A stretch of DNA of 64,000 nucleotides from an uncultured Planctomycetia bacterium. GTDB taxonomy: Bacteria > Omnitrophota > Gorgyraeia > Duberdicusellales > 4484-171. Positions within the stretch are counted from its first letter, which is position 1; the number at the start of each line of letters is the position of its first letter. Under the pieces are notes generated by a model. The model was not told the origin of the DNA. It was given only the letters and a program-made list of their open reading frames with translations, and ran no database searches. Positions 33,370 through 54,045 of the stretch are shown one piece after another. The position numbers were made by a program, and so were the translations under genes. The stretch spans positions 31,544 to 95,543 of the forward strand of contig CAYQUQ010000001.1 in assembly GCA_964420965.1 (NCBI GenBank), given 5' to 3'.

Positions 33370-33379
33370 GGAGGTTAGT

Positions 33380-33613: not shown

Positions 33614-33620
33614 TTTGTAG

Positions 33621-33640: not shown

Positions 33641-33652
33641 GATACTAAATCA

Positions 33653-34450: not shown

Positions 34451-34531
34451 AAGCTTTCAGCTATCAGCCATCAGCTCTCAGCATAGAGATAAAAAAGCTG
34501 ACAGCTGAAAGCAGAAAGCTGATAGCTAAAA
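34451..34531. repeat. CAGCT/AGCTG-rich imperfect palindrome between the cyclase and SRPBCC genes
   Basis: aagctttcagctatcagccatcagctctcagc...gctgacagctgaaagcagaaagctgatagct. Confidence 0.5.
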
Positions 34532-34544
34532 AAGGAGGATTAAG

Positions 34545-34988
34545 ATGGCGCACACCCGAAATGCAATCGTGATCAATGCTGCTTATGACAAGGTTTTTGA
34601 TGTCAGTAATGATATTGCCCGCTGGAAGGAATTCTTCAATGAATACACTGAGTCAGAAGTTTTGGAAAAACAAGGCAATAAACTGACTTTTAAGCTTACC
34701 CACGAAAAAGGGATGAATTGGAAATCCTACCGGCTGCTATTTAAAGAAGATAAGTTTGCTTATGCTTCCCGGGTCGAACCGATGTTTCCTTTCGAATACA
34801 TGCGGATTATCTGGCTCTATCGGGAAGTAGAGGGTGGTACGGAGATGATCTGGATTCAGGATTTTAAGATGGATAAAGGGGCTAAGTTTACCGACGAGCA
34901 GGTGGAGAAGATGATGAATGAGCACTCCCAGGAAAACTTAAAGCGGTTTAAGGAGATTATCGAAAGCGAAGCGAAAGTGAATGCCTAA
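34545..34988 (+). CDS. SRPBCC (Bet v1-like) polyketide cyclase/dehydrase family protein
   Basis: 147 aa; N-terminus IVINAAYDKVFDVSNDIARWKEFF typical of SRPBCC/aromatase-cyclase domains. Confidence 0.7.
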   Translation: MAHTRNAIVINAAYDKVFDVSNDIARWKEFFNEYTESEVLEKQGNKLTFKLTHEKGMNWKSYRLLFKEDKFAYASRVEPMFPFEYMRIIWLYREVEGGTEMIWIQDFKMDKGAKFTDEQVEKMMNEHSQENLKRFKEIIESEAKVNA

Positions 34989-36120
34989 AATAAGCTTTCT
35001 CATTTTTTGCCTGATATTCTGCACGGTTTCTTTTGGGGTGGCGGCCATGGCCGCTTTGATCCCCTCGATTGCCGCCCATTTCGGGGTTTCTCCAGACTAC
35101 GCCATCCGGCTCACCTGGCTGTATATGCTTCCTTACGGAGTAGTGGCCCTTTTCTGGGCCCCGTTAACCCGGATTATCAAGATAAAAAAAATACTCCTTT
35201 TTGCCACTGCCGGATTTTTCTTATCGGCGTTGCTGTTTAGCCTTTCGCGCAGTATACACCAGGCCTTTATTTTTCGCTTCCTGATGGGAGCCTTTGCCTG
35301 CAGCTTCGTACCCCTCTCCTTAATTACCGTAGGCAAGGTCATTGATGCCGAGAGTAAGGCAAAGTATGTGGGTACGTTTTTCGGCCTCTCTTATATATCT
35401 ACCCTGGTGAGCGTTTTTTTAAGCGGATTTATCCACTGGAGGATTATTTATCTGATCCCGGCTGTATCCAGCCTGGCTATATTCGCGCTGGTTTTAACCC
35501 ACCTGCATGATTTTGATTTTAGAAAGACCAGCTTTAAGATCAGCTATCTGGAGACACTCAAAGATAAAAATGCCAGCCGCTTTTTTCTGGTAATTATATT
35601 GGGAAGCATGCTTTATCACAGCTTACAACAGAGGCTGGGGGTATATCTCAGCCAGACCTTTTCTTTAACCCAGGTGGTTATCAGCACCATTTTTACCATC
35701 GCCACCCTCGCCGCGATTGCTTTTGAGTTTTCGGGAGGGTTTTTAAGCTCCCGTTTCGGTAACCTTAGAGTAGCCCGCATCGGTTTTATTCTGATGAGCG
35801 TTTTTACCTTAGGCCTTATTTTTACCCGCCAATATCAGCCCTTATTTTTCTTTATCGTTCTCTGGGGTTCGGGCTGGGCCTTGACTCATGTCGGGTTATC
35901 GACTCACCTCACTAATTTTCCGGATCGAATATTACGTGATGCATCGAGCTTAAACAGCTCCCTGCGTTTTAGCGCCGGGGGCCTGGGGGCTTTTTTAGGC
36001 GGAGTGCTGGTTACAATGGCCGGCTTTAAATTTTTGTTCTGGCTGGTGGCAGTAAGTATATTTTTATTGGGGTTTTATCTGGAAAAATTTTTAAACGGAG
36101 GAAAGAAAAGCCATGGCTGA
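34981..36120 (+). CDS. MFS transporter (probable exporter)
   Basis: About 12 predicted TM helices; MFS motif region RFLMGAFACSFVP. Confidence 0.8.
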   Translation: MPKISFLIFCLIFCTVSFGVAAMAALIPSIAAHFGVSPDYAIRLTWLYMLPYGVVALFWAPLTRIIKIKKILLFATAGFFLSALLFSLSRSIHQAFIFRFLMGAFACSFVPLSLITVGKVIDAESKAKYVGTFFGLSYISTLVSVFLSGFIHWRIIYLIPAVSSLAIFALVLTHLHDFDFRKTSFKISYLETLKDKNASRFFLVIILGSMLYHSLQQRLGVYLSQTFSLTQVVISTIFTIATLAAIAFEFSGGFLSSRFGNLRVARIGFILMSVFTLGLIFTRQYQPLFFFIVLWGSGWALTHVGLSTHLTNFPDRILRDASSLNSSLRFSAGGLGAFLGGVLVTMAGFKFLFWLVAVSIFLLGFYLEKFLNGGKKSHG

Positions 36121-36874
36121 TTTAAAGGATAAAGTCTGTATTATTACCGGAGCCAGCGGCGGAATCGGTAAGGTAATCGTGGCCAGATTAGCTCAGCAAG
36201 GGGCAAAACTGATTTTGGCCGCGAGGAGATTAGAAATACTCGAAGAGTTAAAACAATCCTTGCCGCATCCCGATAATATCTTATGCATCAAATGTGACGT
36301 TACCCAGCAGGCGGATTTAGAAGGCCTGGTGAATAAAGCTTTAGAAAAGTTTAAAAGAATCGATATTCTGGTTAACGCGGCCGGTGTTTCCAGCCAGCAC
36401 CCTTTCTTCAGCCAGCCCCTGGAAGATATTGAAAAGATAATGTATACTAATTATTTCAGCTATGTAATGCTTTCCCGGCTGGTGGTAAATCCGATGAAAG
36501 AACAGAGAGGGGGGCATATTATCAATATTACCAGCGGTTCGGTTATGGTTGAACCGCCCCCGCGCAATTTTATCGTTTATACATCACTGAAGGTGGGTTT
36601 ACGGGCCTTTGCCAAAGGTCTTTTCTGGGAAATGCGCGACTTCGGGATTAAAGTCACTTCGATTTTTCCGGGCGTAACCCGCACCCCTTTAACCGGAAAA
36701 TTGAAAAATATCGCTGAAGATAGATTAATCGAGCCGGAGGCTATTGCCGATACGGTTTTATTCGCCTTAGCCCAACCGGCTAATACCTGTCCGCTGGAAT
36801 TAGCCGTAATCAACCAGCAGACTCCCTGGACTAAGCCGGTGATACCGTTTAAGCAGGATCATCCCCAAAAGTGA
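36113..36874 (+). CDS. Short-chain dehydrogenase/reductase (ketoreductase)
   Basis: TGASGGIGK NAD(P)-binding; catalytic Y...K (YTSLK); NAAG motif. Confidence 0.88.
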   Translation: MADLKDKVCIITGASGGIGKVIVARLAQQGAKLILAARRLEILEELKQSLPHPDNILCIKCDVTQQADLEGLVNKALEKFKRIDILVNAAGVSSQHPFFSQPLEDIEKIMYTNYFSYVMLSRLVVNPMKEQRGGHIINITSGSVMVEPPPRNFIVYTSLKVGLRAFAKGLFWEMRDFGIKVTSIFPGVTRTPLTGKLKNIAEDRLIEPEAIADTVLFALAQPANTCPLELAVINQQTPWTKPVIPFKQDHPQK

Positions 36875-37496: not shown

Positions 37497-38957
37497 ATGA
37501 AGGTTTTGTTTGTGATGCCAAAAATCGGGGCCTGGGCTACCCACGGAGAGCATGTGGCGCCCAACCAGTTGTATGCCCAGTGGGCGGCTTATATTCGCCA
37601 GAAAGGGTATACGGATTTAGAGGTTTTAGATTGCACCATTCTCAATATCCCTCTGGACCAGCTAGCCGGAAAAGTTAAAGAGAAGAATCTGGATTTGGTC
37701 CTGATGGGTGATATGATTCACTGTTCGGTGGGATTCGGTATTATCTGGCATTTTAATGAAGCCGCTTCCCGGATAAGGCAAGCTTTACCTGAGGTTAAGA
37801 TTGTTGTCGGCGGCCTCTGGTATTCAGCTACCCCTATTGAGACTTTAGAGGATAACCCGGCTATTGATCATGTGGTTATGGGCGAAGAGGAAGCTTTTTA
37901 TGATTTAGTCAAAACCATTGACAGCGGGACATCGACTAAAGATGTGGCCGGAACCGCCAGTCGCATTGACGGTAAGCCTCAAATGGGGCCGCACCGGCCG
38001 TTGATGACCGATTTAGACAACTTACCTTTACCGGCTTATGACTTGTTTCCCATGGATAAATATGTGGGTCATACTCACTGGAAGCCGTTTGTAGAGATGA
38101 TAACTTCCCGGGGGTGTCCATCAGCCTGTACCTTTTGTTATGAGTGGAACCAGTATGATCCCCGTTCACCCAATGATTTTTTAACCTGGCGGGCCAAGTC
38201 TCCGGAACGGGTGATCGAAGAGCTGGAGCTGCTGCACCATAAGTTCGGTGTTAAAGTAGTAGTGATCCAGGACGATAACTTTAACGTTGACGCTGAAAGG
38301 GTGGAGAAGTTTTGTAATTTAAAGAAAGAAAAAGGTAATCCCATTAAATGGGTTTCTTTGGGCCGGGCTATTGACTGGGTAAATTGCGAGAAGATATTGC
38401 CCCTGATGAAAGAAACCGGTTTATTTATGGGGGTATTTGGAATCGAGGTAACCACTCCCGAGGAACTCAAGAAAATCGCTAAAGGAATAACCGTTGAGCA
38501 CATTAAAAAGACCATTGATATTTTACGGGCCAATGACGTGGCCATTGTGGCTGATATTATGATCGGCTTTGACTATGATAACGAGCAGATTGTAAAACAG
38601 CGGCATGAGTTTACCGATCAGGTTGATCCGGATATTTTATGGGTCGGCTATGTTACCCCGGCGCCCAATTCGCCGATGTGGAGAATTAGCTTAAAGAAGG
38701 GGTGGTTTGACCCCCGGAAAATCGATTTTCTTAAATGGGATTTTCTGCACCCGGTAATACCTACTGACCATCTCTCCATCGAGGATTTAGGCCGGCTGGG
38801 GGCCTGGTCGATGCGGGAGTTTTTCTCCAAGCCGGGCAGAATTCAGCGGATTATGACCAGTAACTTCGATCCCCTGGCCAAACTTTGCTTCCAGGATGTT
38901 ATGCGTGGAGTGCAGAAGTGGGAGGAAGGCGCGGTCAAAGGCGAAAAACACATATAA
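37497..38957 (+). CDS. B12-binding domain radical SAM protein (class B radical SAM, probable C-methyltransferase or related)
   Basis: N-terminal cobalamin-binding-like Rossmann region; radical SAM motif SRGCPSACTFCYEW; 486 aa. Confidence 0.85.
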   Translation: MKVLFVMPKIGAWATHGEHVAPNQLYAQWAAYIRQKGYTDLEVLDCTILNIPLDQLAGKVKEKNLDLVLMGDMIHCSVGFGIIWHFNEAASRIRQALPEVKIVVGGLWYSATPIETLEDNPAIDHVVMGEEEAFYDLVKTIDSGTSTKDVAGTASRIDGKPQMGPHRPLMTDLDNLPLPAYDLFPMDKYVGHTHWKPFVEMITSRGCPSACTFCYEWNQYDPRSPNDFLTWRAKSPERVIEELELLHHKFGVKVVVIQDDNFNVDAERVEKFCNLKKEKGNPIKWVSLGRAIDWVNCEKILPLMKETGLFMGVFGIEVTTPEELKKIAKGITVEHIKKTIDILRANDVAIVADIMIGFDYDNEQIVKQRHEFTDQVDPDILWVGYVTPAPNSPMWRISLKKGWFDPRKIDFLKWDFLHPVIPTDHLSIEDLGRLGAWSMREFFSKPGRIQRIMTSNFDPLAKLCFQDVMRGVQKWEEGAVKGEKHI

Positions 38958-39844
38958 TGCTTTGCGATAGCCATATTCACTTCATTCCTAAAGAATTGTC
39001 GGCCTATACTGCCTTCTACAAGGGCATATGGACGGATAAGGATAAGCTTTACGGGTTTTTGGAGCACCATAAAATAGAAAAGGCCCTTTTGGCTTATCCT
39101 TCTACCGATGCCCATCTAAAGCTGGAAGTCTTTTCCCGGGTCTGTGAGATTTACAATTCGGCTTTGGCAGAGGTTATTAAAGAAAATCCCCAGATTATCG
39201 GGGCGGGAATTGTGGATATGGATAATCTTTCCGGGGTGGCGGCGCAAGCCGAGGAGCTAAAGCAAAAGGGCTTTGGGGCCGTCAGTATCGCTTCCAGCCA
39301 TAACGGAAAATTCTGGGTTAAAGAGCTAGAACCTCTGTTTGCGGCGGCCCAGAATCAGAATTTACCTGTTTTTGTCCACCCCCAGACCATAAACCCCATT
39401 GGCTTTGAGCGGGTAAAAGACCCGTTGCTTATGCCGGTATTAGAATACAGCCTTGACTCTTCAATGTTTATGGGGCTGTTGATGATGGAAGGGATTCTGG
39501 AAAAGTACCAGGTAAAGTTTATCTTTTCTTCTTTAGGCGGAATCACTCCTTTTCTAAAAGACCGGTTCGACCGGGTTTATACCATGCTCCGGAAACGGCA
39601 GATTGTGAAAGACTTAGGCAAGCTGCCCACGCAAATTTTAAAGAACGTCTATGTGGATACTTCCGGGGCCTCCTTGAAGAATATTCAGCTGGCTATGGAG
39701 TTATTCGGAGCGGATAAGCTTTTGTGGGGCTCGGACTATCCGGTCTGCGGTGACATCCCGGGTAATTTGAAGATGCTGGATGAATTAGGGCCTGAAACCA
39801 AAGAAAAAATTAGTTATCAAAATTTCCAGGCTATTTTCGGATGA
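38957..39844 (+). CDS. Amidohydrolase-2 family metal-dependent TIM-barrel hydrolase
   Basis: MLCDSHIHF metal-binding start; WGSDYP; start at 38957 (TAATG overlap with the upstream stop) rather than 38885. Confidence 0.75.
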   Translation: MLCDSHIHFIPKELSAYTAFYKGIWTDKDKLYGFLEHHKIEKALLAYPSTDAHLKLEVFSRVCEIYNSALAEVIKENPQIIGAGIVDMDNLSGVAAQAEELKQKGFGAVSIASSHNGKFWVKELEPLFAAAQNQNLPVFVHPQTINPIGFERVKDPLLMPVLEYSLDSSMFMGLLMMEGILEKYQVKFIFSSLGGITPFLKDRFDRVYTMLRKRQIVKDLGKLPTQILKNVYVDTSGASLKNIQLAMELFGADKLLWGSDYPVCGDIPGNLKMLDELGPETKEKISYQNFQAIFG

Positions 39845-41312: not shown

Positions 41313-42251
41313 ATGAAACTTTCACCTTTATTCTGGCCGATTCAGCTCAAAGGGAATACTATTTACATTCTAGACGAGACTCTTCTTCCCGGCCAGGTTA
41401 AGTATATAAAAGCTACTGATTATCAGCAAGCCTGCCGGGCCATAAGAGAGATGAAGACCCGGGCCGTGGGGCAGGTGATTTTGGTGCTATATGTTTTCCT
41501 TGAGGTGGTCCGCAAAAACAGGAAGAAGAAAAACCTGTCCTTAGCTTTAAAAAGGGTCGCCCGGGCCATAAATTCCACCCGCCCGACATTATCTTTTAAA
41601 TATTTAACCAATATGATTCTGGGCTGGCATGAGTCCGGGGTGCCTCTGGAAAGAAATATCCTCGGCTTTTTGAAGCGGCTAAAGAATAAACGCATTCAGC
41701 AGGCAGAAGAAGCCTCTAAGTTAGTTAAAAACGGGGATACAGTTCTTACTCACTGCAACGTCAGCGGGTTGATGCCGTTAATCGGCCGGTTTGCCCGCCG
41801 GCACCATAAAAAGATTAAGTTCCTGGTTACCGAAACCCGGCCCTATCTGCAGGGGGTGAGACTGACTGCCTGGGAGCTTAGCCAGGCTGGATTCGATGTT
41901 ACCGTAATCGCCGATAACATGGTAGCCCAGGTGATGAAAGAAAAAAGAGTCAATAAAGTTATTGTCGGTTCAGATAATTTAGCTCAGAACGGCGATATCG
42001 CCAATAAGATTGGCACCTATCAGATTGCCGTTTTAGCCAGGTATTTTAAAATTCCGTTTTATGTCTTATGCCCGCCGCCATCCCGGGCCAATACCGGAAG
42101 GGAGATTAAAATCGAAGTCCGGCCGGATAAAGAATTGTTTATGTTTGCCCATAAATCCATCAGGCCCCGGGGGGTAAAGGGGTATTATCCGGCATTCGAT
42201 ATAACCCCCCATAACTTGATTACTAAGCATATACCTTTAAAATTAAAGTAA
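41313..42251 (+). CDS. eIF-2B alpha/beta/delta-related sugar-phosphate isomerase (MtnA / ribose-1,5-bisphosphate isomerase family)
   Basis: VLTHCNVSGLM; VGSDNLAQNGDIANKIGTYQIAVLA (MtnA signature). Confidence 0.8.
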   Translation: MKLSPLFWPIQLKGNTIYILDETLLPGQVKYIKATDYQQACRAIREMKTRAVGQVILVLYVFLEVVRKNRKKKNLSLALKRVARAINSTRPTLSFKYLTNMILGWHESGVPLERNILGFLKRLKNKRIQQAEEASKLVKNGDTVLTHCNVSGLMPLIGRFARRHHKKIKFLVTETRPYLQGVRLTAWELSQAGFDVTVIADNMVAQVMKEKRVNKVIVGSDNLAQNGDIANKIGTYQIAVLARYFKIPFYVLCPPPSRANTGREIKIEVRPDKELFMFAHKSIRPRGVKGYYPAFDITPHNLITKHIPLKLK

Positions 42252-42253
42252 TT

Positions 42254-43252
42254 ATGTTCGGTAAAGAGAAACAACTCAAAGAAAGAATAATCATGGTGGG
42301 CCGGAAACTCTATGCGGCCCGGTTAGTAGCGGCAACTGCAGGTAATTTAAGCGCGCGTCTCGATGAAAACAATATTCTGATAACCACAACCGGAGCCGCC
42401 TTGGGCGATTTAAATAACCAGGATATTATCAAAATTAATCTTGCCCAAAAGGAGAGCGTCGATAAGCGCCTGACTACAGAATTTCCTTTGCACCGGCTCA
42501 TCTATGAAACTCTAGGCGTAAAGACCGTAATCCACTGCCATCCGCCCCTGGTGAATGGTTATTTTGCGGTCTGTTCTGGTTTAAAGAATTTGACTTTTGA
42601 GTCCGAATTCTATCTGGGCCAGGTGCCGGTTGTGCCCCAGGATACCCCGAGCATAACTAAGCCGGAATTGGTGACCGCAGCTTTAAAAACCAATAATTTG
42701 GTGGTAATTAAGAATCACGGAGTGGTGGGTGTGGGCGAGGATTTTAAGGACAGTTTTAATTTGATTGAGACTTTAGAAGAAGCGGTAAAAGTTGCCGCTA
42801 CGGCCCGATTGTTTGACCAGAAGGTTTTAGACGATTTGGATAAGGCCCTTAAACAGGATTTAACCCAAAAAACTGATATTTACCCCATGTTCTCCCCAGA
42901 ACACATTCAGGCTATTGTCGATTTGGTGAATCAAGATGAATTTATGGCCCAAAAGGGCCGGGAACTGGATTTGACCGTGGAGCTGGCCATAAAGCTTGCT
43001 GAGGATAAAAAAGCCTATAAATTTACTTTTGAGAAAGGAAAAGTCACCCAGTTAGAGTTAAATGATAATGCCCCTTTTGTAATTTCGGCTCCGGCTCCGG
43101 TTTGGGAGCTGGTTTTTTTGGGGAAGTTAGATTCGTTTGTGGCCGTTACCCAGGGGAAGATGAAGCTAAAGGGCCAGCTCGGCCAGCTTTCCCGCTGGTA
43201 CGTCCCGTTTAAGCGCCTGTTTGAATTATTTAAGCAGGTTAAGATAAAATGA
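42254..43252 (+). CDS. Class II aldolase/adducin-domain protein fused to a C-terminal SCP2-like domain
   Basis: N-terminal AATAGNLSAR...FPLHRLIYETLGVKTVIHCHPP (class II aldolase); C-terminal FEKGKVTQLELNDNAPFVISAPAPVWELVFLGKLD...MKLKGQL (SCP2-like). Confidence 0.75.
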   Translation: MFGKEKQLKERIIMVGRKLYAARLVAATAGNLSARLDENNILITTTGAALGDLNNQDIIKINLAQKESVDKRLTTEFPLHRLIYETLGVKTVIHCHPPLVNGYFAVCSGLKNLTFESEFYLGQVPVVPQDTPSITKPELVTAALKTNNLVVIKNHGVVGVGEDFKDSFNLIETLEEAVKVAATARLFDQKVLDDLDKALKQDLTQKTDIYPMFSPEHIQAIVDLVNQDEFMAQKGRELDLTVELAIKLAEDKKAYKFTFEKGKVTQLELNDNAPFVISAPAPVWELVFLGKLDSFVAVTQGKMKLKGQLGQLSRWYVPFKRLFELFKQVKIK

Positions 43253-44742
43253 AGAATTATTCCTTATTTATTAATGGCGAGTTTAAAGATTCCGGTTTAA
43301 AGCAGGAGATAATTAATCCGGCTACCGGCGCGCCCATAGCTTCCGTGGGCTTCGCCGATGCAGAGAGTGCTGAGTCCGCCATAGATGCGGCCCGTAAAGC
43401 TTATGATAACGGGCCCTGGAGGAGCCTTCCTTTAGCTGAACGTAAAGAGTATATTTTAAAGATAGCGCAGGCAATTTTAGAGCAGGCCGCAGAGTTAGCT
43501 AATTTAGAAACTTTAAATACCGGCAAGCCGATAAAAGAATCTACTTTCATGGATATTCCTTCAGCGGCGCAAACCTTTGAATATTTTGCCCGTAATCTGG
43601 AGAAATTTCTGGCTTCGGAGAATATCGATATCCAATCTCCGATTGCGGCGGTGCAGAGCCGGCTTAAGCGCGAACCGTTAGGGGTTTCGGTTTTGATTGT
43701 TCCTTTCAATTACCCCCTGCTTATAGCCTCCTGGAAGATGGCCCAGAGCTTAGCCGCCGGCAATACGGTTATTTTAAAGCCGTCGAGTTTAACCCCTTTA
43801 ACTGTTTTAAAGTTAGGAGAAATTATCCATGCGGCCGGTTTCCCCCCGGGAGTAGTCAATATTTTAGCCGGATCTGGAAGCCGAATCGGGGATATTCTAT
43901 GTTCGGATAAGCGGGTGGACCTGATTTCCTTCACCGGCTCAAACAAGGTGGGTAAAAAAATCATCACCTCTTCTTCCGCAAACGTAAAAAAATTAATCAT
44001 GGAGCTAGGGGGCAAGTCCGCCGGCATCGTTTTGGCGGACGCCGATTTAGAAGCAGCAGTGAACGGTTCTTTGTGTTCGATATTTTTAAATCAAGGCCAG
44101 ATGTGCACCGCAATGTCGCGGATTTTTGTGGCCGAGGGAATATACGACCGATTTTTATCTCAGTTCCTGGATAAAGTAAAGCGCATAAGATTGGGCGACG
44201 GGCTAAATTACGAAACTCAGATGGGACCTTTAATTTCCCAAGAACAGCGGGCTAAAGTAATTGGCTTTGTGGAGAAGGCCAAGGAACAGGGGGCCAATTT
44301 AGTTTATGGAGGCAAAATCCCCGAAAAACCGGAATTGCAAACAGGATTTTTCTTTGAGCCCGCGGTGTTTATAGACGTAAGCCCGCAAGCGGCTATTTTC
44401 CGGGAAGAAGTTTTTGGACCGGTAGTGTGTATCAATAAATTTTCGCATATCGACGAGGCAGTTAAGTTAGCTAATGCCAGTGATTTTGGTTTAGCCAGCT
44501 GTATTTGGAGTAAGGATAATACAAAAGCCGAGAACCTGGCTAAAAGAATTAACGCCGGAACAATCTGGATTAATACCTACGGCATGTTTTTTAATGAAAT
44601 TCCCTACGGAGGCTTTAAGCAAAGCGGTTTTGGCAAGGAATTGGGGAGAGAGGGTTTCTTAGAATACACCCGGCTCAAGAATGTTATCGTTGATGAAACC
44701 AAGGAATCAAAGCCTTTGGTTAATTACTGGTATGGGCTATAG
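43249..44742 (+). CDS. NAD(P)-dependent aldehyde dehydrogenase
   Basis: ELGGKS; catalytic Cys in NQGQMCTA; 497 aa. Confidence 0.9.
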   Translation: MKNYSLFINGEFKDSGLKQEIINPATGAPIASVGFADAESAESAIDAARKAYDNGPWRSLPLAERKEYILKIAQAILEQAAELANLETLNTGKPIKESTFMDIPSAAQTFEYFARNLEKFLASENIDIQSPIAAVQSRLKREPLGVSVLIVPFNYPLLIASWKMAQSLAAGNTVILKPSSLTPLTVLKLGEIIHAAGFPPGVVNILAGSGSRIGDILCSDKRVDLISFTGSNKVGKKIITSSSANVKKLIMELGGKSAGIVLADADLEAAVNGSLCSIFLNQGQMCTAMSRIFVAEGIYDRFLSQFLDKVKRIRLGDGLNYETQMGPLISQEQRAKVIGFVEKAKEQGANLVYGGKIPEKPELQTGFFFEPAVFIDVSPQAAIFREEVFGPVVCINKFSHIDEAVKLANASDFGLASCIWSKDNTKAENLAKRINAGTIWINTYGMFFNEIPYGGFKQSGFGKELGREGFLEYTRLKNVIVDETKESKPLVNYWYGL

Positions 44743-44749
44743 AGATAGA

Positions 44750-44832
44750 AGCAGATTCACGCGGATATTTACGCGGATTCACGCCATGCATGTTTGGCGT
44801 CTATCCGCGTTTAGATCCGCGTATATCCGCCT
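44750..44832. repeat. GCGGAT/ATCCGC iteron-containing palindromic intercistronic element, copy R2
   Basis: agcagattcacgcggatatttacgcggattcacgcc...ggcgtctatccgcgtttagatccgcgtatatccgcc. Confidence 0.75.
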
Positions 44833-44852
44833 CTAAAAAGGGAGGTTTGAAA

Positions 44853-45641
44853 ATGGATTGGGGGATGAGGAATCGATTGAGTAAAGTAATTCCTGATGGA
44901 CGTTGTTTCTTTTTACCCATAGACCACGGCTATTTCCAGGGTCCGACCCGGTGCCTGGAGCAGCCCGGCGAAACCATTAAGCCGCTTCTAGCTTACTGTG
45001 ACGCCCTTTTTGTAACCAGAGGAGTGCTGCGTTCAGCGGTGGATCCCGAAAACAGTAAGCCGGTTATTTTAAGGGTCTCCGGCGGAACGAGCATGGTGGG
45101 TAAAGATCTGGCCAACGAAGTAATTACTACCTCGATTGAAGAAATTATCCGCCTCAATGTCGATGCGGTGGGAGTTTCGGTTTTTATCGGCAGCGATTAC
45201 GAAAAGCAGACTCTGACTAATCTGGCCCAGCTGGTTAATCAGTGTGAAGGCTACGGCATTCCGGTTATGGCTGTTACCGCGGTGGGTAAAGAGCTGGAAA
45301 AACGCGATGCCCGCTATCTGGGTTTGTGTTGCCGTATTTGTGCCGAGCTGGGAGCGCGAATAGTAAAGACCTACTGGTGTGAAGATTTTGATAAGGTCGT
45401 AGGAGGCTGTCCGGTCCCCGTGGTTATGGCCGGAGGGCCGAAATGCAACACCGAACGGGAAGTTTTTGAATTTGTTTACGACGGCATGCAGAAAGGCGCT
45501 ATTGGCGTTAATTTAGGCCGAAATGTCTGGCAGAATCCTCAACCGGTAGCCATGGCCAGGGCTCTGCGGGCCATTATTCACGAAAGCGCTGATGTTAAGC
45601 AAGCCGAAGCGATATTCAACGAGACCAAAAAATGCGCGTAG
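44853..45641 (+). CDS. DhnA-type class I aldolase (DeoC/LacD family; FBP aldolase or 2-amino-3,7-dideoxy-D-threo-hept-6-ulosonate synthase-like)
   Basis: FFLPIDHGYFQGP; Schiff-base region IVKTYW; start moved to 44853 (RBS GGGAGG) because a repeat element occupies 44750-44832. Confidence 0.75.
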   Translation: MDWGMRNRLSKVIPDGRCFFLPIDHGYFQGPTRCLEQPGETIKPLLAYCDALFVTRGVLRSAVDPENSKPVILRVSGGTSMVGKDLANEVITTSIEEIIRLNVDAVGVSVFIGSDYEKQTLTNLAQLVNQCEGYGIPVMAVTAVGKELEKRDARYLGLCCRICAELGARIVKTYWCEDFDKVVGGCPVPVVMAGGPKCNTEREVFEFVYDGMQKGAIGVNLGRNVWQNPQPVAMARALRAIIHESADVKQAEAIFNETKKCA

Positions 45642-46648
45642 CAGTATACTACAGCAATAATGATGTCCGGTTAGAGGAGAGACCTAAGCCGCAAATCGGC
45701 CCCGGAGAAATACTGGTGAAGATGCGGGCTTGCGGTATCTGCGGCAGCGATGTGATGGAGTGGTACCGCTTAAAGAAAGCTCCGCTGGTTTTAGGCCACG
45801 AAGCTGCCGGTGAGGTTATTAACACAGGTGAAGGAGTTAAAAATTTTAAGGAGGGGGATAGAGTTTTTGTTTCCCATCACGTTCCCTGCAACCAGTGCCG
45901 GTATTGCCGGGCTGGCCATCACACCGTTTGTCCCACTCTGCAGACCACCAACTTTGACCCCGGCGGGTTTGCCGAATATATCCGGGTACCGGCGATTAAC
46001 GTAGAGCGGGGAACGTTTCTTCTGCCGCCGGAGATTTCTTTTGAGGAGGCGACCTTCATTGAACCCCTGGCCTGTGTAGTTCGGGGTCAAAGAATGGCTA
46101 ATTTAGAGTTCGGCCAACACCTGCTGATTCTGGGGGGAGGGGTATCCGGTTTACTTCATCTTTTACTGGCCCGCTCCCGGGGCGCGGAGCGGATTGTAGT
46201 TACCGACATCAATGAATACCGTCTGAAGGCGGCTAAGGAGCTCGGCGCCGATTTAGTAATACCGGCAAAAGAAGATGTCCCCGGTTATCTAAAGGACCGG
46301 CCGGCCGATTTGGTAATTATCTGTACCAGTGCTACTGCGGCCTTTGAGCAGGCCCTAACATCCGTGGACCGGGCCGGGACTATCCTCTGTTTTGCCCCCA
46401 CGGAGCCGGGAGTTACTTTACCCCTTCCGGTCAATGATTTTTGGCGTAACAGCATAAAGATCATGCATTCTTACGGCGGCAGCCCTCAGGATATAACCGC
46501 GGCTATAGAATTACTGGCCCGCAAAGAAGTTGTGGTCAGCAGCATGATTACCCATCGCCTGAATTTAAGCCGGGCCGGCGAAGGGTTTGGTCTGGTTGCC
46601 GAAGGAAAAAATTCCCTCAAAGTAATTATTAAACCGGATGCCTCTTGA
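45632..46648 (+). CDS. Zn-dependent medium-chain alcohol dehydrogenase
   Basis: CGICGSD; GHEAAGEV; structural-Zn CxxCxxC (CNQCRYCRAGHHTVC); GGGVSGLL. Confidence 0.9.
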   Translation: MRVAVYYSNNDVRLEERPKPQIGPGEILVKMRACGICGSDVMEWYRLKKAPLVLGHEAAGEVINTGEGVKNFKEGDRVFVSHHVPCNQCRYCRAGHHTVCPTLQTTNFDPGGFAEYIRVPAINVERGTFLLPPEISFEEATFIEPLACVVRGQRMANLEFGQHLLILGGGVSGLLHLLLARSRGAERIVVTDINEYRLKAAKELGADLVIPAKEDVPGYLKDRPADLVIICTSATAAFEQALTSVDRAGTILCFAPTEPGVTLPLPVNDFWRNSIKIMHSYGGSPQDITAAIELLARKEVVVSSMITHRLNLSRAGEGFGLVAEGKNSLKVIIKPDAS

Positions 46649-50006: not shown

Positions 50007-51161
50007 TTAATTTACCCTCTTCGTTTTTAAGAGGGTAATCTCTATCTGGGCGCTTTTGCCTATCGGGGTAGAGGCTATTTTTTCCCTGGCCGTAACCTCG
50101 ATACTGGCCCCGCGAAACAGAGTCCCGAAATCTTTAGAATTGGTCTGCCCGTAATACTCCCGGATGTGGTGTTCATACCGGAAACAATAATAATTTTTTC
50201 CTTTAGAGATGCCGAAAGTGGGGTCGACCGGGACCCAGCCGTATCGCGGTAGATAAATTTCCACCCAGGCATGGCCGACATCGGTTACGCATTTATTCCG
50301 GGAGACGTTAGGCATAAACACGATACCGTCTACTTCCCGCGCCGGAATGCCGCTGGTCCGGGCCAGGGCAATGAACAGCCTGGACAGATCAGCGCAATTT
50401 CCCTTTTTTATCCGGAGGGTTTGATCCGGGTTTTGAAATCCCGAAATTTCCGGCCGGTGTTCATAGGTAAAATTGCGGGTTATAAAGTTATACAGGGCTC
50501 TGCCTTTGCGATAAGGATTTTTTATATTTTTAGTTATGGATCGCGCCGTATTCTTAAGCAGCTTATTATTGATTTTTGCGTCTTTATAGCTTTTTAAATA
50601 AGCGCGGACTTTGGAATTCAGCTTGCCGTAACGGTCGGGAATAGCTTCCGGTTTCAGGCGTAAATCCGTCTGTTGTACCTGGATGGAATAGGAAATATTT
50701 ATATTAATATTTTTCCCGGTTCGGGGCCGGGGAAAGTCGAAAACAGCCACCTTATTATTATTCGGATCGTCGATAAGGGCATCGTGTTTAGGAAGAGTGC
50801 GAATAGTGGATATGGCCTGGTAGGATAAATTCCTGAGTCCTACCGGATAGCGGAAGCGCAAAGTATGCAAGTCCATAAGAGGTCTAATCGTAAAAGTTTT
50901 TTTCACCTTATAGGAAATGAGGTTTTTTATTACCGGCCTTTTGCGTTTTGAGGGGTAGTCTTTGATTTTGGCGATATCATCCCGGGGGTATTTTAAGGTA
51001 AGGTCGTCAATTTCAATTACGATATACCGGTCAGTTTTTTTTACGATTTCACCCCTTATTTTCCGGCCGGACTTAAAAGTAATCGTGTCGGCAAAAAGCA
51101 ATTGGCCAAAACAGCAGATTACTAGGGGGAGAAGTAATATTGTTTTATCGAGTTTCATCAA
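50007..51161 (-). CDS. Secreted transglutaminase-like cysteine-protease-fold protein; paralogue P3 of the N-module family
   Basis: Signal peptide plus DTITFKSGRKIRGEIVKKTDRYIVIEIDDLTLKYPRDDIAKI; core GNCADLSRLFIALARTSGIPAREV...GHAWVEIYLPRYGWVPVDPT. Confidence 0.8.
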   Translation of the reverse strand: MMKLDKTILLLPLVICCFGQLLFADTITFKSGRKIRGEIVKKTDRYIVIEIDDLTLKYPRDDIAKIKDYPSKRKRPVIKNLISYKVKKTFTIRPLMDLHTLRFRYPVGLRNLSYQAISTIRTLPKHDALIDDPNNNKVAVFDFPRPRTGKNININISYSIQVQQTDLRLKPEAIPDRYGKLNSKVRAYLKSYKDAKINNKLLKNTARSITKNIKNPYRKGRALYNFITRNFTYEHRPEISGFQNPDQTLRIKKGNCADLSRLFIALARTSGIPAREVDGIVFMPNVSRNKCVTDVGHAWVEIYLPRYGWVPVDPTFGISKGKNYYCFRYEHHIREYYGQTNSKDFGTLFRGASIEVTAREKIASTPIGKSAQIEITLLKTKRVN

Positions 51162-51710
51162 TCAAAAAAATACTGTTTTGAGCGTTAGTACAATGTAGCC
51201 GGCGGGAAAGCAAAAGGCAGCTATTCCTAATGGGTATAAAGCCGGCATGCGCTTATTGGTTTTTACATCCCGGGCTACCAGAAAGACAACGCCTAGGAAT
51301 ACGGCCCCGATGGAGCCGATTAAACCGGCCAGGCCGATAAATATATTTTGGCCGACACCTCTGGCAATAACCAGCGAGAGGATGGTCCCGATAATAAAGT
51401 TAAGGGCACAAAATATAAATCCACTCAGGATAATCTTTTCTCTCCCCACCCGGTAGGTTAATTCTTCCGGGGTGAGTTTAAGCTTCGGGTATCGGGGGTT
51501 ATATTTCCGGGCCATAATTTTTTCAATCGTCAATAAGCAGAAGATACTGTAGGCCCCGATCAGGATATCGAAGATAAAAGGCTTGGTTCCGGAAGCAGCC
51601 AGAGTGCCGCGGGCGGCATTAAAAAAATGGTAATCAGAAGCATAGCAGGCCAGCCGCAGGGTCCAGACCATAGACTCCGACCAGAAATAATCCCATTTAT
51701 TGACGGTCAT
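51162..51710 (-). CDS. Hypothetical polytopic membrane protein, co-operonic with P4 and P3
   Basis: 182 aa, about 5 TM helices; overlaps P4 by 14 nt and abuts P3. Confidence 0.55.
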   Translation of the reverse strand: MTVNKWDYFWSESMVWTLRLACYASDYHFFNAARGTLAASGTKPFIFDILIGAYSIFCLLTIEKIMARKYNPRYPKLKLTPEELTYRVGREKIILSGFIFCALNFIIGTILSLVIARGVGQNIFIGLAGLIGSIGAVFLGVVFLVARDVKTNKRMPALYPLGIAAFCFPAGYIVLTLKTVFF

Positions 51711-52461
51711 ATTGTTCTTCCATTTGCTGCCGGATGTTCTCCATCACCTGCTTGGCATAGGAAATGGCCAGATCTACTTGGCCCAGGAATTCCGGGGGCG
51801 CGCCCTGTTCGATATATACCCGCCGGAGTTCTTCCATTTCCTCGATAGTGATAGTTTGCATTTTTTGCATCGCTTCCTTAGGCCGGCCGGCCGGATTATT
51901 TCTAATTTCTTTATGCAGGGTTAAAGAGAGCCCTAAAAGCTGGAGCCGCTTTTGGTGGTAGCGGGATAACTCTACCGGCGGGGATATGCTTTCGGTCTGT
52001 TTTATGAGTGTTTCGATTCCCTGAATAGCTTCAGCGAATATGCGCAGTTTTGTTTCCTGGTCCTGGCCCTGCATTTGCTTTCGGGCTATGGCGCCGATTT
52101 GTCCGGCTTTGTGGCCGATAATCCCCATTTGATTTAAGTAGCCCGAGACCCCGGCATGCCAATTCTGCCATTTTTTTAATTCAGCGCTGTCTTTTTCTAA
52201 CAGTTTTATATAATCCGAGGTATTTTTATCCGGACCGGCATATTCCGGGCCTAAAAAAGCGGAAGCGCTCTGGCCGTTAATGCTGTCAATATCTTCGGTA
52301 TAATAAGTTATGGGGATACCGCCGATATCCACCTTTATTTTTCCCTTGGCCTTCTCGATTATTTTACCTTCTACGGTTTTACCCGATTTCAAAATAATGG
52401 TTTCGGCAAAAAGGGAGAAGGAAATTGAGGCCCAGACGAGAAATAAAATTAACTTTTTCAT
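51697..52461 (-). CDS. Secreted alpha-helical protein; paralogue P4 of the N-module family
   Basis: Signal peptide plus ETIILKSGKTVEGKIIEKAKGKIKVDIGGIPITYYTEDIDSI; RBS GAGGAAAGG. Confidence 0.75.
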   Translation of the reverse strand: MKKLILFLVWASISFSLFAETIILKSGKTVEGKIIEKAKGKIKVDIGGIPITYYTEDIDSINGQSASAFLGPEYAGPDKNTSDYIKLLEKDSAELKKWQNWHAGVSGYLNQMGIIGHKAGQIGAIARKQMQGQDQETKLRIFAEAIQGIETLIKQTESISPPVELSRYHQKRLQLLGLSLTLHKEIRNNPAGRPKEAMQKMQTITIEEMEELRRVYIEQGAPPEFLGQVDLAISYAKQVMENIRQQMEEQYDRQ

Positions 52462-52594
52462 TTTTTATCCTTTCCTCACGGCCAGTATAGCATATTTAAG
52501 GCCATTTTTAAAGCTGCGGCCGGTATTGGTTTTGCCTCTATCCAGTTTTTGTTTTTCGAGTATAATAAGTTTAAAACAAAAGGGGTTTTAAAAA

Positions 52595-53485
52595 ATGTCG
52601 TATCTGCTGCTTCACCGGGAGGGGAAACTCAAAGGCTTAAGCGCTGAATTGCTTAAGCGGCTGGCTTGCTGCACTCTTTGCCCGCGCAATTGCCGGGTTA
52701 ACCGGCTTGAAGCTCAGAAGGGGTTCTGTCAGACTCTGGATAAGGCAATAGTTTCCAGTGCTTTTCTGCATTTCGGAGAAGAACCGGAGCTGGTCGGCCG
52801 GGGCGGTTCGGGAACGATTTTTTTTGCCTACTGCAACCTGGGTTGTCTTTATTGCCAGAATCACAGTATTTCTCATTCCGGCGAAGGCCGGACGGTGAGC
52901 GCCGAGGAGCTGGCCACCTTAATGGTGCATTTACAGGAGCAGGGAGCCGAGAACATCAATTTGGTCACCCCCAGCCACGTAGTGGCCCAAATCGTGGCCG
53001 CTTTAGTCATCGCGGCAGATATGGGGCTTAAACTCCCTTTAGTGTATAATTGCGGGGGGTATGAGAGCTTAGAGACCTTAAGATTGATCGAAGGGGTTTT
53101 CGATATTTATATGCCCGACTTTAAGTATTCCCAGAGCGCTCCGGCCCAGCGCTTTTCTTCCGCTCCCGATTATTGGGAAATTGCCCAGGCGGCAGTACAA
53201 GAAATGCACCGCCAGGTAGGAGATTTAGTAGTCGAGGAAGGCCGGGCCCGGAAAGGCTTGCTGATCCGGCACCTGGTTTTACCCCATAAACTGGCCGGCT
53301 CATTTAAAATCCTGGATTTCATAAAGGACGAACTTTCTTTAAATACCTACGTTAATATCATGCGGCAATATTACCCTTGTTACCGGGCTTCCGAGTTTAA
53401 GGAGCTGGGGCGAAGAATTAATACCGCCGAATACCGGGAAGTGGTAGAATATGCTCAGCATATTGGGTTGAATAGAGAATTTTAG
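52595..53485 (+). CDS. Radical SAM protein (PflA/PflX-like activase family)
   Basis: CNLGCLYCQN CxxxCxxC; 296 aa. Confidence 0.8.
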   Translation: MSYLLLHREGKLKGLSAELLKRLACCTLCPRNCRVNRLEAQKGFCQTLDKAIVSSAFLHFGEEPELVGRGGSGTIFFAYCNLGCLYCQNHSISHSGEGRTVSAEELATLMVHLQEQGAENINLVTPSHVVAQIVAALVIAADMGLKLPLVYNCGGYESLETLRLIEGVFDIYMPDFKYSQSAPAQRFSSAPDYWEIAQAAVQEMHRQVGDLVVEEGRARKGLLIRHLVLPHKLAGSFKILDFIKDELSLNTYVNIMRQYYPCYRASEFKELGRRINTAEYREVVEYAQHIGLNREF

Positions 53486-53493
53486 GAGGAGCG

Positions 53494-54045
53494 ATGAAGA
53501 AAGAGATAGCCGTAAGTCAGGCCAGCCGGCTGATTAATTGCGGAATGGTGATCTTGGTTACCGCCGGCCATAAAGACCAGGCTACCATCACACCCTGTGC
53601 CTGGCACCTGCCGCTTTCTAAAAACCCCCCTTTGCTGGGGGTAGCTTTAGCTAAAGGACACTTTTCTGCGCAATTAATAAAGGAAAGCCGGGAGTTTATC
53701 GTGAATATTCCTCCGTGGCCTTTACGCAAGAAAGTGATTGCCTGCGGCAAATGCAGCGGCAGAGACGTAGATAAATTTGCGCAGGCCGAACTTACCCGGC
53801 TAAAGGCACATACCTTACAGGCTGTCCCGGCAATTGCCCAATGCCTGGGCCATATCGAATGCCGGCTCCGGGAAGCTAAAGAAACCGGCGACCATTTTCT
53901 GTTTATCGGCGATATAGTCTATGCCCAGGCCGAGGCCGACTGCTTTAAACAAGGGTTTTGGGATACAAAAACAACGGAGGTAATTTTTCATCTCGGCGCA
54001 AAATGCTTCTTTAAATCTGCGCCGCACATTGAGGTTCAGCCATGA
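53494..54045 (+). CDS. Flavin reductase-like (FMN-binding split-barrel) protein
   Basis: MVILVTAGHKDQATITPCAWHLPLS...LGVAL typical of flavin reductase domain proteins. Confidence 0.75.
   Translation: MKKEIAVSQASRLINCGMVILVTAGHKDQATITPCAWHLPLSKNPPLLGVALAKGHFSAQLIKESREFIVNIPPWPLRKKVIACGKCSGRDVDKFAQAELTRLKAHTLQAVPAIAQCLGHIECRLREAKETGDHFLFIGDIVYAQAEADCFKQGFWDTKTTEVIFHLGAKCFFKSAPHIEVQP

Follow-up and report, generated by a model that had tools for sequence, protein, structure and literature searches.

We analysed 64,000 nucleotides of contig CAYQUQ010000001.1 (assembly GCA_964420965.1); this stretch is called the window below, and all coordinates are positions in it unless a related locus is named. 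The subject of the analysis is a block of five genes at 41313-46648 on the + strand. These genes encode, in order, a predicted sugar-1-phosphate isomerase of the eIF-2B family, a class II aldolase-family protein with a C-terminal SCP2 domain (aldolase-SCP2), an aldehyde dehydrogenase (ALDH), an LsrF-type enzyme of the class I aldolase fold, and a Zn-dependent medium-chain dehydrogenase (Zn-ADH). An initial annotation had read them as resembling a salvage route of the dihydroxyacetone phosphate (DHAP) shunt type, which may detoxify by-products of radical-SAM enzymes of a neighbouring biosynthetic cluster. The five open reading frames (ORFs) were confirmed at the coordinates that it had given, all on the + strand, and the Pfam assignments agree with the families that it had named. 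The motif that it had quoted for the isomerase, VGSDNLAQNGDIANKIGTY, was found in the first ORF.

The five genes are tightly packed, with a 2-nt gap, a 4-nt overlap, a 47-nt gap and, between the LsrF-like and Zn-ADH genes, a 10-nt overlap. They form the 3' end of an unbroken + strand gene string (26541-46648) that also holds the genes of an acyl ligase, a nucleoside phosphorylase, a type II polyketide synthase (PKS)-like core, a B12-binding radical S-adenosylmethionine (SAM) enzyme and an Amidohydro_2 protein (38954-39844). The phosphorylase gene had been placed 13 kb upstream of the block in the same gene string; it does lie in that + strand string, and the distance is 12.4 kb. Scans of 26000-48500 for promoters and terminators gave sites no commoner than in shuffled sequence. 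A single promoter-like match (10/12) lies at 26484-26511, ahead of the first gene of the cluster. The features are listed in Table 1.

Table 1. Features of the window and of related loci (LsrF-like, LsrF-type protein; Zn-ADH, Zn-dependent medium-chain dehydrogenase)
Feature	Sequence	Position	Strand	Basis or remark
FadD/MenE-type AMP-forming acyl ligase	window	26541-28037	+	Pfam AMP-binding 274 bits
PNP_UDP_1-family nucleoside phosphorylase, DeoD/hexameric-MTAP-like; predicted first enzyme of the module	window	28113-28883	+	Pfam 124 bits
Type II PKS-like core: ketosynthases KS-alpha and KS-beta, acyl carrier protein (ACP), PF04199 cyclase, SRPBCC cyclase, MFS transporter, SDR	window	30884-36874	+	family scans
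ACP	window	33380-33613	+	part of the type II PKS-like core
B12-binding radical-SAM enzyme; candidate source of 5'-deoxyadenosine within the cluster	window	37497-38957	+	Pfam Radical_SAM and B12-binding
MtnA-branch (eIF-2B family) sugar-1-phosphate isomerase, predicted; 312 aa, N-terminal domain shortened	window	41313-42251	+	Pfam IF-2B 196 bits
Class II metal-dependent aldolase-family domain with C-terminal SCP2 lipid-binding domain; 332 aa	window	42254-43252	+	Pfam Aldolase_II 119 bits, SCP2 21.7 bits (cut-off 21.3)
NAD(P)-dependent non-acylating ALDH; 497 aa	window	43249-44742	+	Pfam Aldedh 558 bits
LsrF-type class I aldolase-fold enzyme (3-hydroxy-5-phosphonooxypentane-2,4-dione thiolase family); 283 aa	window	44790-45641	+	Pfam DeoC/DhnA-family 99 bits; NF006081
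Zn-ADH, polyol/threonine-dehydrogenase type; 338 aa	window	45632-46648	+	Pfam ADH_N and ADH_zinc_N
LsrF-like/Zn-ADH pair, Coriobacteriia/Actinobacteria	L086	8001-9886		LsrF-like, then Zn-ADH
LsrF-like/Zn-ADH pair, Coriobacteriia/Actinobacteria	L087	150-2052		LsrF-like, then Zn-ADH
LsrF-like/Zn-ADH pair, Coriobacteriia/Actinobacteria	L088	7352-9879		LsrF-like, then Zn-ADH
LsrF-like/Zn-ADH pair, Coriobacteriia/Actinobacteria	L089	8001-9872		LsrF-like, then Zn-ADH
LsrF-like/Zn-ADH pair, Coriobacteriia/Actinobacteria	L090	8001-9891		LsrF-like, then Zn-ADH
ORF of about 157 aa	L107	10517-10990
ORF of about 157 aa	L123	9543-10019
ORF of about 157 aa	L124	9528-10004
ORF of about 157 aa	L125	9534-10004

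Families and catalytic residues of the encoded enzymes

Judged from profile and structure scores, the isomerase belongs to the MtnA branch of the eIF-2B family, outside the ribose-1,5-bisphosphate (R15P) isomerase branch. It passed the broad subfamily model TIGR00524 (197.1 bits vs a cut-off of 185.85), and its scores with the MtnA models were 220-241 bits vs 118 bits with the R15P isomerase model. Among its solved relatives, MtnA proteins gave 167 bits (1t9k) and 155 bits (2yvk) and R15P isomerases 85-88 bits. The motifs THCN and GSDN align with those of Bacillus subtilis and Thermotoga maritima MtnA and also with those of DrdI; their Cys and Asp correspond to the catalytic residues (Cys160 and Asp240 in B. 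subtilis MtnA). The enzyme is 38% identical to Bacillus thuringiensis DrdI (171-178 bits) and 33-35% identical to canonical MtnA proteins (155-157 bits), and by these pairwise scores neither of the two is clearly preferred. Clustering with R15P isomerases next to a RuBisCO-like gene had been named beforehand as a finding that would overturn the shunt reading. The R15P isomerase/RuBisCO reading was rejected, because the model TIGR00511 gave 118.2 bits vs a cut-off of 314.1, the structure scores were as given above, and no RuBisCO-like gene was present among the ORFs scanned with Pfam and NCBIfam (26541-46648 and 50007-63356) or recognised at 1-26281, which was judged from translations only.

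The aldolase domain of the second protein keeps the FucA-type set, namely the metal ligands (three His), a catalytic Glu, and the GN(L)S and TG loops that bind phosphate. Residues G30, N31, S33, E76, H94, H96 and H155 were invariant in 53 sequences of two families. None of the NCBIfam equivalog models was passed; the best match was PRK08660 'aldolase' (112/203, given here and below as score/cut-off in bits), the second best was the decarboxylase OtnC (88/250), and the haloarchaeal ribulose-1-phosphate aldolase model gave 51/300. The domain had been described as MtnB/Ald2-like, a description that we could not uphold. An MtnB dehydratase is ruled out by the score with TIGR03328 (61.6/137.05). 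The DrdA lineage is ruled out by an identity of 21% (47 bits) to B. thuringiensis DrdA and by 37 bits with the DrdA structure 6btd vs 68 bits with a Thermus thermophilus FucA-like protein, in a comparison that held no Ald2 reference. Nor does the protein appear to cluster with the fuculose or rhamnulose aldolases, which had been named as a second finding that would overturn the shunt reading; it passes no curated family.

The C-terminal 120 residues of the same protein make up the SCP2 domain. The match to the Pfam model PF02036 is marginal (Table 1), and the family profile of aldolase-SCP2 matches the solved SCP2 structures 2cx7 and 1wfr (E about 9e-5). An AlphaFold2 model of the protein (pLDDT 90.4) has two domains joined by a disordered linker (195-204), with a confident alpha/beta domain at 215-326. 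The nearest fold was that of the T. thermophilus FucA-like protein 2fk5 (TM 0.85), with YgbL/OtnC and a pyridine-dicarboxylate decarboxylase among the other structural neighbours; the best 50 matches of this full-length search all concern the aldolase domain and carry no information on the SCP2 part. SCP2 is fused to the aldolase without exception in two families that share just 31-38% identity. Such a domain is unexplained by a simple shunt forming acetaldehyde or methylthioacetaldehyde, and the literature searched held no match for a class II aldolase-SCP2 fusion.

The best solved relative of the phosphorylase is Sulfolobus solfataricus methylthioadenosine (MTA) phosphorylase (1jds, 89 bits), followed by the purine nucleoside phosphorylases (PNPs) of the DeoD type. 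The protein is about as similar to DeoD and uridine phosphorylases as it is to MTAP. It gave no match with the MtnP/MTAP family models, and its matches to the PNP_UDP_1 relatives HpnG and MTAN were weak. It retains the Arg and Ser that bind phosphate, and the SDH/SDN motif (here VSDN) has its Asp.

The ALDH is a generic non-acylating enzyme. Its nearest curated NCBIfam families, namely betaine aldehyde dehydrogenase (BADH, 534/669), aminobutyraldehyde dehydrogenase and phenylacetaldehyde dehydrogenase, all remained below cut-off, and its closest structures were Staphylococcus aureus BADH (421 bits) and phenylacetaldehyde dehydrogenase (404 bits). The acyl ligase reached 431/476 with the long-chain-fatty-acid-CoA ligase model PRK06187 and just 266/729 with the acetate-CoA ligase model, and it is of the long/medium-chain FadD/MenE type rather than of the acetate type.

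LsrF is the thiolase of autoinducer-2 (AI-2) breakdown, which converts 3-hydroxy-2,4-pentanedione 5-phosphate (P-HPD) and coenzyme A (CoA) to DHAP and acetyl-CoA. The fourth gene had been assigned to a DhnA-type class I aldolase. This is right for the family, which Pfam gives as DeoC/DhnA, and the specific type is that of LsrF, since the protein passes the curated LsrF model NF006081 (359.5 bits vs a cut-off of 297). Escherichia coli LsrF structures were the top match among solved proteins (250 bits), and the identity is about 52% to LsrF from an authentic lsr operon of Bacillus and 45% to Enterobacter LsrF (tblastn). A class I fructose-bisphosphate (FBP) aldolase of the DhnA type was rejected because both models failed (NF040816, 131.5/430; NF006704, 58/277). 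An ADH synthase or GriI-type enzyme was also rejected: the ADH synthase models gave 199-201 bits, and the ADH synthase MJ0400 gave 156 bits vs 250 bits for LsrF. The active-site residues in the crystal structure of E. coli LsrF are Lys203, Asp57, His58, Asp251, Gly253 and Arg254, and Asp251 was proposed to be catalytic (Diaz et al. 2009, PMC2728841). The window protein keeps D57, H58, the Schiff-base Lys K203, G226, G227, and the phosphate-binding G253 and R254.

For the Zn-ADH, the best NCBIfam models were Tdh (177/380) and IolM, and the closest structures were sorbitol dehydrogenase (1pl6, 169 bits), ketose reductase and Tdh. Its GxGxxG...D pattern, recognised by eye, is usually associated with NAD.

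Gene order in Omnitrophota and the pair in Coriobacteriia

At least 161 species-level genomes encode an aldolase-SCP2 with 60-76% identity, and the loci of 80 of them were used for counting. All 80 loci belong to Omnitrophota, some being labelled Planctomycetes. The organism of the window is likewise a member of Candidatus Omnitrophota, to judge from how near-identical proteins and related genomes are named. The counts below are the loci with a feature over the loci with enough flank. The isomerase gene lies directly upstream of aldolase-SCP2 in 70/72 loci and the ALDH gene downstream of it in 63/64; the phosphorylase gene adjoins that of the isomerase in 55/66, so that phosphorylase, isomerase and aldolase are directly adjacent there. 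PKS genes lie upstream of the module in 46/47 loci, an acyl ligase gene follows that of the ALDH in 34/50, and a B12 radical-SAM gene is present in 35/40. This grouping is far beyond chance. The DHAP-shunt-type trio proposed by the initial annotation is thus borne out as a co-inherited set of a phosphorylase, an MtnA-branch isomerase and a metal-dependent class II aldolase. A self-standing salvage operon is not borne out: the block was found only inside a phylum-wide type II PKS-like/B12-radical-SAM cluster, always together with an ALDH and usually with a FadD-type ligase.

The conserved order is (TIGR04076 protein), KS-alpha, KS-beta, B12 radical-SAM, ACP, cyclase, SRPBCC cyclase, (MFS), SDR, Amidohydro_2, phosphorylase, isomerase, aldolase-SCP2, ALDH, FadD-type ligase and RlmN. 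The window represents a rearranged 'type B', in which the ligase and phosphorylase genes stand at the head of the cluster and aminotransferase-IV and methyltransferase genes are inserted before the isomerase gene. The head order of type B (AMP-ligase, phosphorylase, ApbA-like reductase, TIGR04076, KS) is kept in at least 15 metagenome contigs. We therefore think that the phosphorylase gene, in spite of its distance from the block, is a stable member of the cluster. Between type A (e.g. L003) and the window, the phosphorylase, ligase and Amidohydro_2 proteins are just 42-48% identical and the other proteins 59-81%; the former three may have diverged in specificity or been replaced between the two arrangements.

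A second, divergent aldolase-SCP2 family of 224 proteins occurs in the same kind of cluster, and the gene set recurs across three rearranged cluster types and this second family. In two variants (L107 and L123) no PKS genes are in view, and the order is ligase (one locus), B12 radical-SAM, (phosphorylase), isomerase, aldolase-SCP2, ALDH. Since the radical-SAM enzyme, the isomerase, aldolase-SCP2 and the ALDH are kept in every arrangement in view, they can be regarded as the constant core; the phosphorylase and ligase genes are in the cluster wherever the relevant part is in view. After the module, both variants (L107, 13891-18775; L123, 14912-19667) carry genes of an MMPL/RND transporter with a sterol-sensing-like domain and of a LolA-like/DUF1329 protein, followed by a DUF1302 protein in L123 and a 476-aa ORF in L107. 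Such a set of MMPL/RND, LolA-like/DUF1329 and DUF1302 proteins looks like outer-membrane lipid export. In the second family, an ORF of about 157 aa with faint IF-2B similarity lies between the isomerase and aldolase-SCP2 genes and overlaps both (Table 1); it has no counterpart in the window.

The LsrF-like and Zn-ADH genes behave differently from this core. They are optional in Omnitrophota, being present in 20/64 loci with enough flank and in 24 loci in all, and in these 24 loci one was never seen without the other. The pair is inserted either between the aldolase and ALDH genes or 3' of the ALDH gene, and the LsrF-like protein is the best-conserved protein of the cluster (median identity 81%). 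A search with the LsrF-like protein among 50% representatives, whose matches were mostly fragments, led through the seed P0122 to loci of Coriobacteriia. An adjacent pair was present in all five loci from Coriobacteriia/Actinobacteria metagenome-assembled genomes, the LsrF-like protein and the Zn-ADH being 51% and 50% identical, respectively, to those of the window. Its neighbours there are genes of pyrophosphate-dependent phosphofructokinase, a DhnA-type aldolase and acetyl-CoA carboxylase (carboxyltransferase), or folate, pantothenate and NAD genes. The pair of L088 is directly preceded by the gene of a class II aldolase of 186 aa; the best model of this aldolase is PRK08660, as for the window aldolase domain, and this actinobacterial relative scores 62/300 with the haloarchaeal ribulose-1-phosphate aldolase model.

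LsrK, LsrG, LsrR and LsrACDB genes were absent from the window and from every related locus, the Zn-ADH gene being the partner instead, and no lsr genes were present at the five Coriobacteriia/Actinobacteria loci. The canonical lsr (AI-2) system was therefore rejected. Databases name the Coriobacteriia proteins LsrF, although the context is not that of quorum sensing. On an Aureibacter plasmid (L127, 7140-9810), a gene annotated as LsrF follows those of DhaK and DhaL (dihydroxyacetone kinase), without lsr genes.

Because the pair recurs in Coriobacteriia and is never split, it is an autonomous module that crosses phyla rather than the aldehyde-reducing end of a DHAP shunt. Two of the five genes form a distinct LsrF-type/Zn-ADH module. 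Given its obligate LsrF-like partner and its sorbitol/threonine-dehydrogenase type, the Zn-ADH is unlikely to reduce the shunt aldehyde.

As for the host cluster, in its KS-beta the Cys is replaced by Lys and the second His by Asp. The radical-SAM enzyme encoded at 37497-38957 is BchE/HpnJ-like, with scores below the cut-offs, and a ladderane-type assignment was rejected (TIGR04072, 65 vs 360). In family scans of the cluster genes, HpnH- or MqnE-like genes were not found, nor was a SAM halogenase/DUF62 gene. The literature searched held nothing on this Omnitrophota PKS-like cluster. The cluster sits among housekeeping genes. RlmN (48323), itself a radical-SAM enzyme, adjoins it, and a further, small radical-SAM gene lies at 52595-53485.

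A 207-aa protein encoded at 30169-30792 consists of two TIGR04076 domains (102 bits vs a cut-off of 33), and related clusters conserve the position of its gene immediately upstream of that of KS-alpha. A 2353-aa ORF (19220-26281), which directly precedes the cluster, has an N-terminal membrane anchor, Ser-rich linkers, an acetyltransferase-like region and long internal repeats, with the block ...FSQDHALAQSAYEYLDHLAYKESNL... occurring three times. The cluster is followed, in the window (56550-63356) as in L124 (13183-19795), a locus of a distant member of the Omnitrophota, by genes of RNase Y, YmdB, Dxs and pyruvate:ferredoxin oxidoreductase subunits in an identical order. Between the cluster and these genes the window has about 10 kb more than L124; this extra part encodes a TPR protein, membrane proteins, RlmN, a transglutaminase-like protein and the radical-SAM protein of 52595-53485.

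A possible route and its alternatives

We tentatively favor the following reading, which we regard as quite possible although not yet as probable: the block would be the downstream half of a 'nucleoside-to-aldehyde' module, of the type of the DHAP shunt and the fluoroacetate pathway, built into the type II PKS-like/B12-radical-SAM cluster of Omnitrophota. The family assignments, the intact catalytic residues and the conserved gene order described above are observed. From these we infer the substrates, the direction of flux, the oxidation at C4 and the role of SCP2, which are worded conditionally here. The PNP-family phosphorylase would cleave a 5'-substituted adenosine to a pentose-1-phosphate. 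The likeliest nucleoside is 5'-deoxyadenosine released by the B12 radical-SAM enzyme of the cluster itself, with MTA as an alternative. The MtnA-branch isomerase would convert the pentose-1-phosphate to a ketopentose-1-phosphate, which the class II aldolase would split between C3 and C4 into DHAP and a C2 aldehyde. The ALDH would oxidise this aldehyde to the acid, and the FadD-type ligase, where present, may convert the acid to a thioester. The collinear gene order and the family assignments fit such a stepwise route, and most relatives encode the genes, tightly packed, in the order of the route.

The Zn-ADH and the LsrF-like enzyme could form a side branch that starts from the same ketopentose-1-phosphate by NAD-dependent oxidation of its C4 hydroxyl. 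By chemical reasoning, 5-deoxyribulose-1-phosphate oxidised at C4 would be P-HPD, the substrate of LsrF, and the LsrF-like enzyme would cleave it by CoA-dependent thiolysis to DHAP and acetyl-CoA. This branch would be an ATP-free route, akin to the sequence of threonine dehydrogenase and 2-amino-3-ketobutyrate CoA ligase. Sorbitol and threonine dehydrogenases oxidise secondary alcohols, and the closeness of the Zn-ADH to them fits the oxidation proposed. The occurrence of the pair without the isomerase in Coriobacteriia could be explained, because 1-deoxyxylulose 5-phosphate (DXP) oxidised at C4 would give the same compound.

Several observations weigh against this reading. The isomerase misses the cut-offs of both MtnA models of NCBIfam (PRK05720, 241.1 vs 271; TIGR00512, 219.8 vs 279), and together with its 38% identity to DrdI and 33-35% to MtnA this suggests a lineage of its own. 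The aldolase appears to fall in no characterised clade, and its superfamily also includes decarboxylases, epimerases, dehydratases and a dioxygenase. The phosphorylase reads VDMV where S. solfataricus MTA phosphorylase reads VEME; the second Glu, which presumably binds the ribose hydroxyls as in E. coli PNP, is missing. In all three Omnitrophota LsrF-like proteins compared, D251-M252 is replaced by Asn-Leu, whereas Asp-Met is retained in the Coriobacteriia, Bacillus and Enterobacter proteins. The missing phosphorylase Glu, D251N in the LsrF-like enzyme and the unplaced aldolase lineage lower our confidence in the exact substrates. The pair occurs without any isomerase nearby in Coriobacteriia, so that it may use another substrate such as DXP, and the literature searched held no link of LsrF with MtnA, 5-deoxyribulose or DXP. 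An invariant SCP2 domain and a ligase of FadD rather than acetate type fit poorly with the formation of acetaldehyde and acetate. With the MMPL/RND, LolA-like/DUF1329 and DUF1302 neighbours, they suggest a hydrophobic ligand somewhere in the module. As to DXP, a canonical Dxs is encoded at 59308-61182, and it is thus unlikely that the LsrF-like/Zn-ADH pair serves this organism as a DXS-independent DXP synthase.

A hydrophobic ligand is the starting point of the alternative that survives best, which we consider unlikely: the substrate would be a 5'-C- or 5'-S-linked adenosine bearing a hydrophobic polyketide or lipid group, by the logic of HpnH/HpnG and MqnE/MqnB. The adenine would be removed, C1-C3 would be cut off as DHAP, and the remaining R-CH2-CHO would be turned into activated R-CH2-COOH by the ALDH and the FadD-type ligase. 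Such trimming of an adenosylated intermediate would account for the SCP2 domain fused invariably to both aldolase families, for the long/medium-chain type of the ligase, and for the genes read as lipid export directly downstream in some genomes. The module was not seen apart from the radical-SAM gene in the arrangements in view, and the phosphorylase has its weak matches to HpnG and MTAN. It is, however, closer to DeoD and S. solfataricus MTAP than to these two. The sole radical-SAM enzyme of the cluster is a B12-binding class B enzyme, we know of no such enzyme that adds an adenosyl group, and the scans found neither an HpnH- or MqnE-like gene nor a SAM halogenase/DUF62 gene. The place of the LsrF-like/Zn-ADH pair beside central-carbon genes in Coriobacteriia also argues for a small sugar-phosphate substrate.

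Taken further, trimming of an adenosylated hydrophobic intermediate would mean that SAM contributes a two-carbon carboxymethyl unit to the biosynthesis of a lipid or polyketide, which we consider rather improbable. Adenosylation, radical or nucleophilic, would be followed by phosphorolysis, MtnA-like isomerisation, a retro-aldol cleavage guided by SCP2, and oxidation and activation, and the Zn-ADH/LsrF-like pair would give the acyl-CoA directly. To our knowledge, no such use of SAM has been described.

The plain housekeeping salvage proposed initially seems quite improbable. It would consist of a cell-wide detoxification of 5'-deoxyadenosine or MTA, in which the Zn-ADH reduces the aldehyde, the class I enzyme is an ordinary sugar-phosphate aldolase, and the PKS genes are linked to the block by position only. 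Phosphorylase, MtnA-like isomerase and class II aldolase are indeed all present, radical-SAM genes lie nearby (37497; RlmN, 48323; 52595), and the cluster is located among housekeeping genes. A positional link is difficult to maintain, however, when aldolase-SCP2 stays in a PKS/radical-SAM cluster in 46/47 loci and across rearrangements. The Zn-ADH is of the polyol type, and its ties are with the LsrF-like gene rather than with the aldolase; as for the class I enzyme, it passes the LsrF model and fails those of FBP aldolases (131/430). The SCP2 fusion and the FadD-type ligase would be left unexplained. DHAP-shunt chemistry appears well supported, while a free-standing detoxification operon is not supported.

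Ordinary nucleoside or pentose catabolism, in which ribose-1-phosphate would pass through ribulose-1-phosphate to DHAP and glycolaldehyde, the latter becoming glycolate by the ALDH (cf. the haloarchaeal nucleoside route), is very unlikely: the phosphorylase is as near to DeoD/uridine phosphorylases as to MTAP and both aldolases match the haloarchaeal model weakly, but the isomerase lies in the MtnA branch, whose characterised members act on 5-modified ribose-1-phosphate, and this reading gives no reason for the lock into the PKS/radical-SAM cluster or for SCP2. It is also highly improbable that the aldolase-family protein serves as decarboxylase, epimerase or dehydratase for a polyketide or a sugar-acid phosphate while the LsrF-like enzyme joins DHAP to an acyl thioester and the Zn-ADH reduces the resulting phosphorylated head group; OtnC as the second-best curated match, the YgbL/OtnC and pyridine-dicarboxylate decarboxylase folds, the altered chemistry suggested by D251N and, by reasoning, a condensation driven by thioester cleavage would agree with this, but the full FucA-type set (three His, catalytic Glu, phosphate loop) is invariant, the ALDH as the constant next gene fits an aldehyde product, and the phosphorylase and isomerase would have no role.

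We return to the favored 'nucleoside-to-aldehyde' module and to what it may mean. DHAP-shunt-type enzymes as a fixed part of a polyketide/radical-SAM cluster across an uncultured phylum are a combination that we did not find in the literature searched. The module might either rid the radical-SAM enzyme of the cluster of an inhibitory by-product or feed a SAM-derived two-carbon unit into the product. If the side branch is real, thiolysis of 5-deoxyribulose-1-phosphate (or DXP) to DHAP and acetyl-CoA would be an energy-conserving salvage of 5'-deoxyadenosine and a new physiological role for the LsrF family. The LsrF-like protein and the polyol-type Zn-dehydrogenase are in any case a conserved and unstudied gene pair of Omnitrophota and Coriobacteriia that occurs outside quorum-sensing operons. 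The aldolase-SCP2 fusion can serve as a marker of, and a handle on, the product of the Omnitrophota cluster.

Comparison with known systems

The enzymological precedents for the predicted route are DrdK/DrdI/DrdA, the variants started by a phosphorylase, and the route from 5'-fluorodeoxyadenosine (5'-FDA) to fluoroacetaldehyde (PMC6079011); homologues of MTA-salvage enzymes inside a biosynthetic cluster have also been described (PMC9486936). With the DHAP shunt and 5-deoxyribose salvage (MtnP or MtnK, MtnA and Ald2; DrdK, DrdI and DrdA), the window shares the joint encoding of a nucleoside-phosphorylase-type enzyme, an MtnA-family isomerase and an aldolase of class II, and the predicted products would likewise be DHAP and a C2 aldehyde. 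In contrast to those systems, the aldolase of the window belongs to another clade (21% identity to DrdA) and carries SCP2, its phosphorylase resembles DeoD and hexameric MTAP, and its isomerase does not reach the cut-offs of the MtnA equivalogs. Furthermore, an ALDH and a FadD-type ligase follow in the window set, which occurs only within a type II PKS-like/B12-radical-SAM cluster.

The fluoroacetate pathway of Streptomyces cattleya (5'-FDA phosphorylase FlB, isomerase, fuculose-type aldolase, fluoroacetaldehyde dehydrogenase) has the same four-step order in secondary metabolism. There, fluoroacetaldehyde is oxidised to fluoroacetate, and the window module would in the same way turn C4-C5 of a SAM-derived adenosine into an acid. 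The two differ in that the window cluster has no fluorinase or chlorinase gene and possesses the SCP2 fusion and an acyl ligase. Since no SAM halogenase gene is present there, the 5' substituent would not be a halogen added within the cluster.

Compared with LsrF of the lsr operon, the window protein passes the same curated model at 52% identity and keeps Lys203, Asp57, His58 and the phosphate-binding Gly/Arg, but it has a polyol-type Zn-ADH as partner, no lsr genes, and Asn-Leu for Asp251-Met252. The likeness of the predicted side branch to Tdh/Kbl is one of logic only: a Zn-dehydrogenase would make a beta-dicarbonyl from a CH3-CHOH- terminus, and cleavage with CoA would give acetyl-CoA. The cleaving enzyme here is of the class I aldolase fold, not a pyridoxal phosphate enzyme as in Tdh/Kbl, and the substrate would be a sugar phosphate. 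Compared with the adenosylhopane (HpnH/HpnG) and futalosine (MqnE/MqnB) routes, the radical-SAM enzyme of the window is a B12 enzyme of class B, and neither route has anything equivalent to the isomerase, aldolase and ALDH steps. These routes resemble the window cluster in that a radical-SAM enzyme and a PNP_UDP_1 enzyme take part in one pathway, to a lipid or quinone, and that ribose carbons of SAM are retained in the product.

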